Shown: positions 30,962 through 36,839 of the stretch, one piece after another | Layout of the letters: every line of letters starts with the position of its first letter | How positions within the stretch are numbered: position 1 is the stretch's first letter | Source of the DNA: an uncultured bacterium | Lineage (GTDB): Bacteria > UBP14 > UBA6098 > B30-G16 | Assembly (NCBI GenBank): GCA_965552135.1 | Contig: CBEVQY010000008.1 | Span: forward strand, 3,662-67,661 | DNA length: 64,000 nucleotides | Direction: 5' to 3' | Translations under genes and position numbers: made by a program | The notes under the pieces: generated by a model | Database searches by the model: none | What the model was told of the DNA's origin: nothing | Seen by the model: the letters and a program-made list of their open reading frames with translations, nothing else

Positions 30962-31440
30962 ACGCGGAAAAGCTCATAGTCTTTCATGCGGGCGGGGTCA
31001 GGTTCGGCGTAAGGCTCCTTGACGTTGCCGAGGTTGTTGATGTGGAGGACCTCGAGCCTTTGGAGGGCAGCTTTCCCTACCGCGCTGCGCGCTTGAGGGA
31101 CGATGTGGTCTTTTGGGTCGACCTCGGCGCGAAGTTCGGGCTTGGGGCTTTATCCGGCTGCAGCCGTCTTATCCTCTTCCAGCTGCCTGTGCCCTTTGGT
31201 CTTGCGGTCCCTGCGCCGCTTGACGTTGCCCAGGTGGGCGATGATGACCTCAAGCCTGTGCCCCGGCTTATCTCGACCTCCGCGGCGGGAAGGTATGTGG
31301 CATCCTTTGCCGTCGTGAGGGATGAGGTCGTTCTTGTGCTTGAGCCCACGGCGCTCCTTTCGCCCGACGAGCTTGCGGAGCTCATCCAGGCAAGGCAGAA
31401 GCTTTTGACCCAGGTGCGCGCGAAGGTGGCAAAGGTATGA
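30958..31440 (+). CDS. cheW: Divergent CheW-like adaptor
   Basis: LIVF...RFGV...V.EVV, LRDDV..VDL...GL, VLVLEP..LL. Confidence 0.72.
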   Translation: MNAEKLIVFHAGGVRFGVRLLDVAEVVDVEDLEPLEGSFPYRAARLRDDVVFWVDLGAKFGLGALSGCSRLILFQLPVPFGLAVPAPLDVAQVGDDDLKPVPRLISTSAAGRYVASFAVVRDEVVLVLEPTALLSPDELAELIQARQKLLTQVRAKVAKV

Positions 31441-33521
31441 GGCGACTTGCGGCTATATTTCTGTCCTTCGCCTTTGTGCTTGCCCAGGAGGGCGGGCTTG
31501 AGGACCTTTCGCTCGAGGAGCTTTTGAAGGTCAAGGTTGAGTCTTCGGCGCAAAAGGTTTTGCGGATAACCCAGGCGCCCTCCGTGATAAGGGTCATCAC
31601 AGCCGACCAGATCCGCGCGCACGGCTACCGCAGCGTGGGCGAAGCCCTGAGGTCGGTGCCGGGGCTTTATGTGTCGTCCGATTACGTTGGCTTCAGCGTC
31701 AACGTGAGGGGCGTAAGCAACGGCATGCGCTGCTGGAGCAGGATCGTCAAGGTTATGATCGACGGTCAGCCCGTCTCGTTCGGTTACAGCGACGTGAACT
31801 TCCTCGGTCCCGAGTTTATTCCGATAGACGTCGTCGACCGCATCGAGGTCATTCTCGGTACAGGCTCGGCGCTGTATGGCTCCGACGCCTTTTTGTGCGT
31901 GGTAAACGTGGTGACCAAAACGGGCAGCGACGTCGACGGCTTCGTTTTGCGCGCCGACGCCGGCACGGAAAACTCCAAAGACGCATCCTTTGCCGCAAGC
32001 TTTTCGGCGGGCAAGAAGAAGGGGGGCATCGATTACGTCTTTGCCGTCTCGGGCGTTCACGCCAACCGCTCGGGGCTTTCGGTGCCGGAGCTTTCGCCGA
32101 ACTACGAGGCATACAAGGCGCTCAAAAGCGAAGACGACCTCGCAAAGCCCATAAGCTTTTTCGGAAAGCTCGGGTACAAAAGCGCGCAGCTTGGCGAGGT
32201 GAGGCTTTCCGGAGGGGTTCAGTACCTCAACACCAACGCCGAGTTCGCCGACTGGGGTCCGCTCACACACCAAAACACCCTCTCGGTGCACAACTACTAC
32301 CTTCGGCTTGGCTGGGAGCGCAGGTTTAAGAGGAACGTTTACGCGAAGTTTTACGCTTCCTGCAGCGGCGGAGGTCCGGGCGCCGGCGAAAGGCTCGACT
32401 ACGGCAGCGACATCCACTACGAGCACCGTGACTTCGGCTACCTAACCCTCTCCGCAGACGCGCAGCTTGAGTACTCACCGTCCGATAAGATAAGCATAGC
32501 CGGCGGCGCAAGGCTTGTTTCCGAAAACTACGAGCTTGAGAGGATCTGGTCCTTTTTCAGGACCGACTTCGGCGAACATGCCGAGGGCGACTCGGTCGCA
32601 ATAAGCGGCGAGGGGAAGGACACAACGTTTTCGGACTACAGCCTCTACACCCAGGCGATATACAACGCCACGCCGAGTTTGAGCTTCACCCAGGGTCTTG
32701 TTTACGACAAGCACAGCGCCTACGGCGATTTTTGGACGGTGCGCTTCGGCGCGGTGTACAAGTTCTCGGAGGAGGGGAGGCTAAAGTTCCTCTTCGGCTC
32801 TTCGTTTAACGTTCCGTCGCCGCAACTTCTTTTCGCAAAGCCGCTTTACCCCGGCGACGTCGTTGGAAATCCCGAGCTTGTGCCCGAGCAGGCAAAAACC
32901 TTCGATATCGAGCTTACGCCACTCACCACCGAGGACATAAGCGTCTCCTTCGACGCGTTCTACAACCTCGTCTACAACAAGCTTGGCTTTGCCTACGAGG
33001 ACGGCATCATAAAGGCGCGCAACTACGACAACGTCAAGGTCATGGGCGTTGAGGGCGAACTTAGGTGGAGCTACAAGAACTTCACCACGCGCTGGACCGT
33101 TTCGTACCAGCACACGAAGCGCGCCGGCGCCGCCGAGGGCGTGCCACCCGCCGGAAGGGCGGAGCTTGTGGACGAAGTCTCGTTCGAATACCCCAGGGTG
33201 CTTTCGTACAGCAGCTTCGTTTACTCCATCCCAAAGCTTAAGCTCGCCATAGGGTTCGAGCAGCAGTACGTTGGCGAGCGCAACGCATCGCAGCCAAACA
33301 TCGCACTAAACGGTGGAAAGACCTACAAGCTTGGGGCGTATCAGATATACAACCTGAACATATCCACCATAAGGCTAAGGCTTTTGGGCAGGCACGAGAC
33401 GAAGTTTACCCTTACGGTTCGCAACCTGACCGACGAAAGCTACGTGGAGCCGGGCTACAACGGTCTTGACGTGCCGGGGATGAGGCGAACGGTTTACCTT
33501 GGCGTTTCGCAGGTGTTCTGA
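31437..33521 (+). CDS. TonB-dependent outer-membrane receptor
   Basis: LSLEELL.VKV.S start; plug APS.I.VIT..QI...G, RIEVI.G.GSALYG; GNPEL.PE; NLTD; C-terminal F. Confidence 0.92.
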   Translation: MRRLAAIFLSFAFVLAQEGGLEDLSLEELLKVKVESSAQKVLRITQAPSVIRVITADQIRAHGYRSVGEALRSVPGLYVSSDYVGFSVNVRGVSNGMRCWSRIVKVMIDGQPVSFGYSDVNFLGPEFIPIDVVDRIEVILGTGSALYGSDAFLCVVNVVTKTGSDVDGFVLRADAGTENSKDASFAASFSAGKKKGGIDYVFAVSGVHANRSGLSVPELSPNYEAYKALKSEDDLAKPISFFGKLGYKSAQLGEVRLSGGVQYLNTNAEFADWGPLTHQNTLSVHNYYLRLGWERRFKRNVYAKFYASCSGGGPGAGERLDYGSDIHYEHRDFGYLTLSADAQLEYSPSDKISIAGGARLVSENYELERIWSFFRTDFGEHAEGDSVAISGEGKDTTFSDYSLYTQAIYNATPSLSFTQGLVYDKHSAYGDFWTVRFGAVYKFSEEGRLKFLFGSSFNVPSPQLLFAKPLYPGDVVGNPELVPEQAKTFDIELTPLTTEDISVSFDAFYNLVYNKLGFAYEDGIIKARNYDNVKVMGVEGELRWSYKNFTTRWTVSYQHTKRAGAAEGVPPAGRAELVDEVSFEYPRVLSYSSFVYSIPKLKLAIGFEQQYVGERNASQPNIALNGGKTYKLGAYQIYNLNISTIRLRLLGRHETKFTLTVRNLTDESYVEPGYNGLDVPGMRRTVYLGVSQVF

Positions 33522-35337: not shown

Positions 35338-35348
35338 ACGGAGGGGGT

Positions 35349-36839
35349 ATGAGCGTTTTGAAGAGGCTTTCTCTGAGGTTTAAAATTTCCCTAAGCTTTG
35401 TATTGGCATTTGCGGCGCTTGTCGTCTTCATCCTGATCTTCTTCCCAGCCCAGCAAAGCCTTCAGGTGCGCAAGGCTTTGGAGGACAAGACTCTCTCCAT
35501 AGCCAAGATGGTCGCGATGAACGTTGCGCCCGGTCTTGAGTTCGAGGACAAGGAAATGGTCCAGGAGGCTTTTCGCAGCGCCGCCCAGGACCCCGACCTC
35601 GACTTCATCGCCGTCTTCGACAACGACAACAACCTCTTTGCCGCATACAACTTCAGGCAGAGCTTTGGGATAGCCTCGGTGAAGGAGGGGATGTCGATAA
35701 GCGGTGATCTTCTTTTGTGCAAGCTCCCCGTGACCTCGGAGGGGATGAGGCTTGGCTACCTTCTTGTGGGGATGTCCCTTTCGAGGATAAAGGGTCAGAT
35801 AGCGCGCTACAGGGCGCTTGTTGTGGTTGTGAGCGTTTTGGTGCTCGTTTTCGGTGGACTTTTGGGCTTTTTGGTGGGCGGCGCCATAGCCAAGCCGATG
35901 GTGACGCTCGCCCAAAGGTCCGCGGAGATATCGGAGCGGGCGGGCGACCTGACAACACAGATACCCGTCGTCACGCAGGATGAGGTCGGTCAGCTTGCCG
36001 CCGCCTTCAACAAAATGATCGCAGGACTCAGGGGGATGATAGTCAAGGTCCTTCAGACCGCCAACGACGTCTCGGAGATGGTCAAAAAGCTTTCGATAAG
36101 CTCGCAGGACATAAGCGCCACGACGCAGGAGGTATCCTCGACGATACAGGAGATCTCAGCCGGCGCCGCGAAGACCGCTCAGCGAGTCGACGAGACATCG
36201 AAGGTTATGGAGGAGATGGTTTCAAGCGTTGCAACGATAACCCAAAGCGTGCAGGAGGCGGTGGAGAAGATAAACGAGATAAGCCGCAGCGTCGACGCGG
36301 CGATGGCTGTCGTCGAGGAGCTTGCCGCATACTCCGACAAGATAGGGGAGTTTGTGAACGTCATAAGTGACATCGCCAACCAGACGAACCTTCTTGCTCT
36401 CAACGCTTCGATCGAGGCTGCGCGCGCCGGCGAGGCGGGAAGGGGCTTTACGGTCGTTGCCGAGGAGGTCAAAAAGCTTGCCGAAAACTCCGGAGATGCC
36501 GCAAACGAAATAAACCGCCTCATAGCCGATATCCGCGAGAAGATCGACGATGCCGTCGAGCGGATGAAGGCAAGCTCGAGGCGCGTTGAGGAGGGGAAGG
36601 AGGTTATAGCCAACGTTTCGTCGCAGGTTGAGGGGATAATGACGCGGGGAGCGCGGCGCGTGGAGGAGAAGATAAGCGAGATAGCCGCGATGTCGGAGGA
36701 CGCCGCAAGCGCAACCGAGGAAACCTCCGCCGCCACAGAGGAGATCACAAGCTCCATGGAGCAGATGAACACCCTCATCCAGCAGCTCTACAGCCGCGCT
36801 GCGGAACTCAGAGAGCTTGTGGCAAAATTCAAGGTCTAA
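35349..36839 (+). CDS. Methyl-accepting chemotaxis protein (TM, small periplasmic CHASE8/Cache-like domain, TM, HAMP, signalling domain)
   Basis: L.F.D...VQE sensor pattern; [40 protein letters not shown]. Confidence 0.95.

Follow-up and report, generated by a model that had tools for sequence, protein, structure and literature searches.

A TonB-dependent receptor, a YfiR-like protein and the only chemoreceptor of an uncultured UBP14 bacterium encoded together inside a che operon

What does a chemosensory pathway read when its genome supplies only one receptor, and by what route does the signal arrive there? The usual view of chemoreceptors is that they detect small ligands either directly or by way of transport binding proteins. 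The question is raised by a 64,000-nucleotide stretch of DNA (the window) from an uncultured bacterium of the GTDB lineage UBP14; UBA6098; B30-G16 (assembly GCA_965552135.1, contig CBEVQY010000008.1, positions 3,662 to 67,661 of the forward strand). In its che operon the gene for the genome's one methyl-accepting chemotaxis protein (MCP) is preceded by genes for a TonB-dependent outer-membrane receptor (TBDR), a binding lipoprotein of LivJ fold and a YfiR-like protein. A first-pass annotation of this DNA had proposed that the four proteins form a relay, in which an outer-membrane signal would reach CheA through the YfiR-like protein with the binding protein as co-sensor. The architecture proved to be genuine, conserved and suggestive of a mechanism, and it constitutes a clean one-receptor system: the pathway's single chemoreceptor has the YfiN sensor module. 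The best explanation of it, to which we give roughly even odds, is a chemoreceptor that is gated by a periplasmic partner and fed from the outer membrane.

The cassette and its conservation

Predicted proteins of the window were scanned with Pfam (gathering cut-offs, reported to E 0.01) and NCBIfam release 20 (June 2026). The four genes of the cassette, at 31437-36839 between cheW and cheR, are the following.

31437..33521, + strand: TonB-dependent outer-membrane receptor (TBDR), 694 amino acids; Pfam Plug 67.3 bits, TonB_dep_Rec_b-barrel 93.9 bits
33521..34783, + strand: LivJ-fold (Peripla_BP_6) lipoprotein; Pfam Peripla_BP_6 176 bits
34780..35337, + strand: YfiR-fold protein, putatively periplasmic, 185 amino acids, ATG start; Pfam DUF4154 'YfiR/HmsC-like' 44.7 bits (cut-off 24.9)
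35349..36839, + strand: chemoreceptor with first transmembrane segment (TM1), CHASE8, second transmembrane segment (TM2), HAMP and MCP signalling domain; CHASE8 41.2 bits (cut-off 27), HAMP 46.6, MCPsignal 157.2

The cheW gene overlaps the TBDR gene by 4 nucleotides, the TBDR gene overlaps that of the binding protein by 1, the binding protein and YfiR-like genes overlap by 4, and a gap of 11 nucleotides separates the latter from the MCP gene. For the YfiR-like gene, an upstream TTG at 34732 is likewise open. The coordinates, gaps and protein families on which the proposed relay was built were thus all borne out, as was the statement that no ATP-binding cassette (ABC) permease or ATPase is adjacent; none was found among the genes at 29558-41222, where twelve co-oriented + strand genes are located. 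The cassette genes are translationally coupled within one che operon, which we count in favor of the relay.

The source genome (2.35 Mb, 95% complete) belongs to a small phylum of 26 species genomes, seven of which encode a DUF4154 protein, once each. In all six of the others (6/6) the cassette recurs in the order TBDR-(binding protein)-YfiR-MCP, at 40-64% protein identity; TBDR orthologs in the same position share 41-58% identity. Four of the six show the full order from a CheX-receiver protein with MshEN-type motifs through TBDR, binding protein, YfiR, MCP, CheR, CheW and CheD to CheY. Among those four, CheA and CheC were also seen in loci L012 and L014, and L013 ends in CheD at the end of its contig. 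In L011 the TBDR gene directly adjoins that for YfiR, the binding protein being absent, and in another of the six genomes the arrangement is split over two contigs. No CheA was detected for L015 (genome G012), where the che genes reach the contig start and where the genome, 90% complete, contains no CheA dimerization domain. Further contigs came from a metagenome scan, although several seem to derive from organisms already represented by the assemblies and are not independent. Among the new contigs, L073 and L078 are two further cassettes that lack the binding protein. In L078 (11067-14924), the 3.8 kb 3' of the MCP gene showed no che gene. The cassettes without a binding protein do not form one group in the sensor tree described below. 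Neither of two weaker homologs of the operon's first gene, the one for the CheX-receiver protein, has che genes or a cassette in its vicinity (L033, L034).

Since the order recurs while the binding protein was lost in three loci, the conserved core of the cassette is TBDR-YfiR-MCP. The neighborhood search therefore removes the concern that the gene order might be unique to this genome, and because the order recurs in relatives at 40-64% protein identity, the arrangement is not a chance neighborhood.

The YfiR-like protein and the sensor module of the chemoreceptor

The relay had been made to depend on a YfiR fold for the product of 34780-35337, and this identification held: the DUF4154 match lies above its cut-off, and an AlphaFold2 (AF2) model compared by Foldseek matched YfiR chains. 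The Pfam match covers profile positions 34-143 of 143 (45.2 bits in a whole-genome scan), and the protein is the sole DUF4154 protein of the genome. The model, built from a 13-sequence alignment, had a predicted local distance difference test score (pLDDT) of 91.4 and a predicted template-modeling score (pTM) of 0.85. Against the Pseudomonas aeruginosa YfiR chains 4zhu, 4yn9, 4yn7, 5eb1 and 4yna, the target-normalized TM-score was 0.67-0.74 with probability 1.00. The top matches, better than YfiR, were small Rhodothermus chains described as 'substrate-binding protein' (6k1x, 5z6v). By eye, the translation begins with a signal-like segment of 19 residues ending in AFA and followed by QQ, an N-terminus from which the protein is predicted to be periplasmic.

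Word-based homolog searches were shallow, returning 16 matches for the sensor region of the MCP and 10 for YfiR. In the 13-sequence YfiR alignment, 22 columns are invariant and a further 13 nearly so; 12 of the 22 invariant columns fall in residues 141-179, the C-terminal third. There is no cysteine among the invariant or nearly invariant columns of this alignment. P. aeruginosa YfiR has two disulfide bonds (PMC4887326), so that a conserved redox-sensitive disulfide pair of that kind is unlikely here. The P. aeruginosa protein also binds vitamin B6 and L-Trp at millimolar affinity (PMC4887326).

Two hydrophobic segments of the MCP, near residues 13-33 and 156-181, flank some 122 periplasmic residues; the CHASE8 (PF17152) match, residues 41-140, lies between them. 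Residues 8-225 match, at 92.9 bits (E 2e-26) and hence short of the cut-off of 194, the NCBIfam model NF053592, 'sensor histidine kinase, YfiR-like protein-associated', and residues 19-230 match the DgcN/YfiN model with 38 bits. On the strength of these profile matches, the sensor module is judged homologous to those of YfiR-associated kinases and of DgcN/YfiN. Pfam gave no GGDEF match in the MCP, the output domain being MCPsignal. In its model (pLDDT 87) the periplasmic domain has the form of a single PAS/Cache-like sensor. The best structural matches are a kinase PAS sensor (3cwf), a LapD ortholog's periplasmic domain (4u64), WalK, LuxQ and CitA, and there is also resemblance to DcuS and DctB. 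Among the LapD ortholog, WalK, LuxQ and CitA, several are under the control of periplasmic protein partners. Residues K47, S50, M54, A56, F65 and D67 are invariant across MCP and kinase forms of the module and are clustered in the first periplasmic helix of the sensor. The most conserved parts of the presumed pair are this helix and the C-terminal third of the YfiR-like protein, and this too is counted for the relay.

Prediction of a complex between the YfiR-like protein and the MCP gave a score of 0.51 (runs of 0.51, 0.52 and 0.49), compared with 0.00 for the best of three controls, with 100% contact agreement between runs and a partner pLDDT of at least 92. The mark used for such scores is one that 58 of 80 solved complexes attained, as did 2 of 110 mismatched pairs; the alignments for the present prediction were author-made, so that the calibration is only rough. 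Passes at or below 0.60 are rated weak, just 7 of the 80 solved complexes being found there together with both passing mismatches. The interface that the relay implies was thus predicted with clean controls, but as a weak pass.

YfiR represses YfiN by way of the periplasmic PAS domain of the latter, as was found experimentally for a core that has been described as modular (PMC3375315). By analogy, the YfiR-like protein would bind the CHASE8 domain of the sole MCP and set its signaling state, and the signal would then run through HAMP and the MCP hairpin to CheA. The proposed binding of the YfiR-like protein to the MCP is the best-supported step of the scheme because YfiR-YfiN homology, the strict adjacency of DUF4154 and CHASE8, the conserved surfaces and the weak complex prediction all point to it. 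The resemblance of the periplasmic model to the ligand-binding sensors CitA, DcuS and DctB would also suit an MCP that senses a small ligand directly in a PAS/Cache-like pocket, the YfiR-like protein then having no regulatory role and serving, for example, as a folding or assembly factor. However, the tight and widely conserved DUF4154-CHASE8 adjacency, the experimental repression of YfiN by YfiR in the homologous system (PMC3375315) and the weak but control-clean predicted interface all speak against direct sensing, which we consider very improbable.

Related cassettes and known systems

The order TBDR-YfiR-CHASE8-HAMP kinase was seen in an Ignavibacteria assembly (L023) and in an Aminicenantales assembly (L025). 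In the phylum of the former, 111 of 285 genomes encode DUF4154. Among the best 30 loci from that phylum, a TBDR gene lies immediately upstream in 16 and a CHASE8 sensor gene immediately downstream in 19, with both in 13; a CHASE8-HAMP-MCP gene is downstream in four, none of which (0/4) has the TBDR. The Aminicenantales phylum has YfiR of this type in 16 of 401 genomes (E <=1e-8). When 20 of its loci were examined with local profiles, the sensor module was downstream in 16/20, a same-strand adjacent TBDR gene was present in 11/20, about half had the triad order, and an MCP signaling domain was found in 0/20. In L025 (2973-5876, + strand) one frame of 967 amino acids has HisKA and HATPase_c at its start, followed by TBDR Plug and barrel; this is more likely two genes in frame without a stop, or an assembly error, than a true kinase-barrel fusion, which would be implausible.

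A profile of the sensor module retrieved 666 cluster representatives at E <=1e-30 among 1.84 billion. Local profiles assigned the best 150 of these 666 to 9 MCPs, 123 kinases and 4 GGDEF proteins, with 14 unresolved, and the MCP is thus a minority output of the module. A quick maximum-likelihood tree of 37 sensor modules, which is unrooted, has hand-picked rows and carries long branches that were flagged, showed two clades with a Shimodaira-Hasegawa-like approximate likelihood-ratio test (SH-aLRT) support of 100. Each clade contains TBDR-linked kinases; the stand-alone MCPs fall among those of one, and the MCPs of the che cassettes, which form one group (support 94), accompany those of the other. 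Because the two kinds of MCP fall in different clades, exchange between MCP and kinase outputs occurred more than once on this tree. With TBDR-YfiR-CHASE8 kinase loci common in two other phyla, the first-pass statement that such cassettes usually end otherwise was upheld for the kinase, and its view that the output had here been swapped for an MCP is a fair description.

Three of the four loci with a downstream CHASE8-HAMP-MCP gene in the Ignavibacteria phylum were viewed more widely and showed isolated pairs of a YfiR-like protein and such an MCP, at L068:9062-11349, L069:7369-9822 and L070:1072-3241, with no TBDR or che genes within several kb. Such a pair may represent a minimal YfiR-gated chemoreceptor. 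These stand-alone pairs in another phylum, together with the absence of the binding protein from three cassettes and the reported response of YfiBNR to envelope and reductive stress (PMC4992967, PMC4887326), are what would be expected if the YfiR-like protein and the MCP were the sole signaling pair, acting as an envelope-stress or redox sensor, and if the TBDR and the binding protein were merely co-expressed nutrient-acquisition genes. Yet the adjacency of TBDR and YfiR recurs across three phyla, at distances beyond simple inheritance of synteny, and the triad is modeled as a unit by the NCBIfam curators. Furthermore, the 13-sequence YfiR alignment has no invariant cysteine, and a LivJ-type binding protein without a permease cannot serve uptake, the LivH/M type not having been found. 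This reading is, in our estimate, quite unlikely.

The cassette has several known counterparts. It resembles YfiBNR/HmsCDE (YfiB-YfiN-YfiR of P. aeruginosa, DgcN-YfiR of Escherichia coli) in having a YfiR-fold gene beside genes for a CHASE8-HAMP sensor with two transmembrane segments and an outer-membrane protein. In the present case, however, the output is an MCP that signals to CheA and not a GGDEF domain, and the outer-membrane partner is a TBDR and not the OmpA/Pal-like lipoprotein YfiB, for which the genome beyond the neighboring genes was not searched. There is also the additional LivJ-fold lipoprotein, no cysteine is invariant, and sequence similarity is too low for a PDB match. The NCBIfam triad (NF053590, NF053591, NF053592) has the same order of TBDR, YfiR-like protein and CHASE8-HAMP sensor, and the window proteins match all three models, the YfiR-like protein giving 25.4 bits (cut-off 125) with NF053591, 'TOL_0243 family YfiR-like'. 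The window cassette differs from the triad in its MCP output within a che operon and in the binding lipoprotein whose gene stands between those for TBDR and YfiR, except in L011, L073 and L078. A further likeness is to FecA-FecR-FecI, since here too a TBDR would be the origin of a signal passed across the periplasm to a protein of the inner membrane; unlike the Fec system, this cassette has no STN domain, anti-sigma factor or extracytoplasmic function (ECF) sigma factor, and the relay would pass through a soluble YfiR-fold protein to a chemoreceptor. As in binding-protein-dependent chemoreceptors and sensors (PMC8050422; LuxP-LuxQ, WalK-YycH), a periplasmic protein and not a pocket of the receptor would deliver the signal, but in this cassette the receptor is encoded together with two distinct periplasmic proteins; the review PMC8050422 does not mention YfiR or TonB. 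Finally, OmpS of Alcanivorax dieselolei is reported to be a TBDR alkane sensor that triggers chemotaxis, and is said to be 40.3% similar to TOL_0244, the TBDR from which the NCBIfam family takes its name and which rose sevenfold on n-C28 alkane (PMC6304351, PMC9788540). OmpS likewise places a TBDR upstream of a chemotaxis response, the difference being that, as cited in these papers, it triggers chemotaxis gene expression.

The first-pass annotation knew of no characterized system with this architecture. That statement has to be narrowed. We found no experimental paper on a triad of TBDR, YfiR-like protein and kinase, the literature on YfiR and TonB-dependent proteins being judged from titles and the beginnings of abstracts. 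Yet in silico examples of the YfiR-YfiN core with an MCP as output were already pointed out by Malone et al. 2012 (PMC3375315, with homologs listed in Table S4 and Figure S5), the triad is already curated in NCBIfam, and pairs of YfiR and CHASE8-MCP that lack a TBDR exist in another phylum. The text of PMC3375315 makes no mention of TonB. Among the literature matches listed for YfiR and methyl-accepting, none beyond Malone 2012 linked the two, and TOL_0243 had no literature occurrence. Thus the central output swap was anticipated in print, and it is the further steps, put forward here conditionally, that would be surprising. What we describe is a known cassette with a minority output; among the sampled genomes, only this phylum embeds it in a che operon together with an added sensing-only binding protein.

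Input, output and neighboring genes

The TBDR consists of a signal peptide, a short N-terminus, a plug and a barrel, with about 25 residues between signal peptide and plug. Pfam, reported to E 0.01, found only Plug and barrel and no STN signaling domain. The nearest solved chains are CirA, FepA and BtuB, and the match is limited to the plug region. The genome encodes six TBDRs and has three TonB_C matches. Membership of the TBDR in the TOL_0244 family was considered and rejected: NF053590 gave 98.4 bits (cut-off 645), and although it was the top model for the TBDRs of three che cassettes (the window, L012 and L015), it was so by few bits and over the plug only. For the five other TBDRs of the genome, used as controls, this model was low-ranked or absent, and it was 12th for the kinase-linked TBDR of L023. 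Because membership in this family was rejected, the TBDR partner of the cassette is treated as variable.

The N-terminus of the binding protein, MRFLRWGIGVFGALFLAGC, contains a lipobox (FLAGC; LAGC), and among solved chains the protein comes closest to branched-chain amino-acid binding proteins (3td9, E 1.8e-21). The BPD_transp_2 family (PF02653), to which LivH/M-type permeases belong, had 0 matches in this 95%-complete genome, the same search being positive in 12 of 14 reference genomes. The view that the binding protein is an orphan was thus confirmed, in that the cognate type of permease was found neither in the operon nor in the genome. A LivJ-fold binding protein that lacks a transporter fits a sensing-only role. 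Its sole paralog (contig C7; L035:5901-7115), at 27% identity, is encoded beside a TPR protein and also has no adjacent transporter, so that the organism may tend to use LivJ-fold proteins for sensing only.

Under the favored reading, the TBDR would be the input and would bring a scarce ligand into the periplasm to be sensed there. The YfiR-like protein, with its half binding-protein fold, would read the ligand, as would the LivJ-fold lipoprotein where one is present, and the hold of the YfiR-like protein on the MCP would be altered. Import followed by sensing is favored because the transporter-less lipoprotein and the half-binding-protein fold point to a soluble ligand, and because P. aeruginosa YfiR binds small molecules weakly. 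These roles of the TBDR and the binding protein, like the cellular output discussed below, are ones that we infer.

The main rival to import-then-sense is sequestration of the kind attributed to YfiB. A ligand-loaded or TonB-energized TBDR would expose a periplasmic segment that captures YfiR and so frees the MCP, with no STN domain or anti-sigma factor involved. The precedent is YfiBNR itself, where the outer-membrane partner sequesters YfiR and activates the sensor (PMC4887326, PMC3375315), and a TBDR occupies the place of that partner in 16/30 and 11/20 of the sampled loci. The TBDR-YfiR-MCP core is, moreover, kept where the binding protein was lost, and inspection of N-termini by eye revealed a short conserved motif just after the signal peptide in cassette TBDRs. 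TonB boxes normally lie in the N-terminal region of TBDRs, however, and the motif may not be specific to these cassettes. Nor do cassette TBDRs of different phyla make up one clear NCBIfam family, and a dedicated binding lipoprotein in most che cassettes better fits a soluble periplasmic ligand. On balance we hold sequestration to be unlikely. Capture of YfiR by a ligand-gated TBDR would amount to a TonB-linked trans-envelope route without STN or anti-sigma that gates the array directly, as the sole input of the lineage's only chemosensory pathway, and this we regard as doubtful; if true, the same principle would explain many TBDR-YfiR-kinase triads in other phyla.

The output side of the pathway is encoded by the remaining genes of the operon.

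29558..30961, + strand: CheX-receiver protein with two MshEN-type motifs predicted to bind cyclic di-GMP (c-di-GMP), first gene of the operon; NCBIfam NF053729 107.5 bits (cut-off 38) in 2 stretches, Pfam CheX 40 bits, Response_reg 76.6 bits
30958..31440, + strand: CheW-like coupling protein, overlapping the TBDR start by 4 nucleotides; Pfam CheW 48.6 bits
36817..37671, + strand: CheR methyltransferase; Pfam CheR 169.7 bits, CheR_N 45.5 bits
37675..38094, + strand: CheW; Pfam CheW 114.6 bits
38045..38584, + strand: CheD; Pfam CheD 96.6 bits
38598..38963, + strand: CheY-like single-domain response regulator; Pfam Response_reg 90.6 bits
38968..40572, + strand: CheA with Hpt, dimerization, HATPase_c and CheW domains (Pfam), the sole CheA of the genome, in which PF02895 has a single match
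40569..41222, + strand: CheC/CheX-type CheY-P phosphatase, last gene of the operon; NCBIfam CheC_Thtogales 103 bits (below the cut-off of 250), Pfam CheC 24.6 bits
41340..41371, + strand: terminator-like hairpin with a 13-pair stem and then a T-run, 3' of the last che gene; consensus scan

The hairpin is a plausible end of the operon; terminator-like sites in the region numbered 15, compared with 16.3 expected from shuffles, and so are not enriched.

The genome has one MCP, which is also its sole CHASE8 protein, and one CheA. FlhA and CheB were not found in this 95%-complete genome, CheR and CheD being present, and FlhA was found in 0/7 of the cassette genomes (59-95% complete). CheA was found in 8 of 26 genomes of the phylum and FlhA in 1 of 26; the genome with FlhA lacks YfiR and has three CheA matches. 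We also found five T2SSE-family ATPases, three of PilT-like length, and about nine GGDEF genes (10 matches). The pathway is the only chemosensory one of a cell that is apparently non-flagellated, and its lone receptor has the cassette as input side. Its role is probably not flagellar, and it probably adapts in the absence of CheB. CheA would act on CheY and on the c-di-GMP-binding CheX-receiver protein, in which the two MshEN-type motifs are followed by CheX and by a C-terminal receiver domain. This domain order suggests that c-di-GMP tunes the turnover of CheY-P, by which the Che pathway would be linked to c-di-GMP in an organism without detectable flagellar genes. Because no flagellar export gene was found, movement based on type IV pili or another surface behavior is a more likely output than flagellar chemotaxis.

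Several findings weigh against a YfiR-gated chemoreceptor with an outer-membrane feed. A profile of the clade's YfiR proteins, searched against PDB sequences, retrieved no YfiR chain and gave only chance-level matches (E >=0.38), and the YfiR-like protein is therefore only distantly related to the YfiR proteins that have been studied. All three window scores lie below the cut-offs of the NCBIfam triad (98.4 against 645, 25.4 against 125 and 92.9 against 194), and the cassette TBDRs are not a clear orthologous family. Pairs of YfiR and MCP elsewhere do without an adjacent TBDR. The binding protein, dispensable in L011, L073 and L078, is an accessory part. The YfiR-MCP prediction is a weak pass in which the interface itself is not reported, and the inference that the cell lacks flagella depends on one marker, FlhA. 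If the relay is nevertheless true, it would show how substrates that do not freely cross the outer membrane become visible to a chemosensory array, and it would offer a simple one-receptor model for the widespread TBDR-YfiR-sensor cassette.

Other features of the window were noted in passing. Upstream of the che operon, the stretch from about 24000 to 28800 has a G+C content of 0.43-0.46, compared with 0.56-0.61 in the operon, and may be a foreign or fast-evolving island; the open reading frames at 24178-24744, 25184-25699, 26278-26976 and 27828-28802 matched no Pfam family. Three very large Peptidase_C25 (gingipain-type) proteins are encoded at 3602-7381 (+ strand, 1259 amino acids), 9220-13491 (- strand, 1423 amino acids) and 13239-17219 (- strand, 1326 amino acids), the first of which has a C25 propeptide and a C-terminal FlgD_ig-like domain. 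Downstream of the che operon, 41289-46893 (+ strand) encodes a respiratory or hydrogenase-like module composed of a 4Fe-4S dicluster protein and NuoH-like, NuoB-like and NuoD/NiFe-hydrogenase-like subunits, together with a weak molybdopterin-oxidoreductase-like protein below the Pfam cut-offs.

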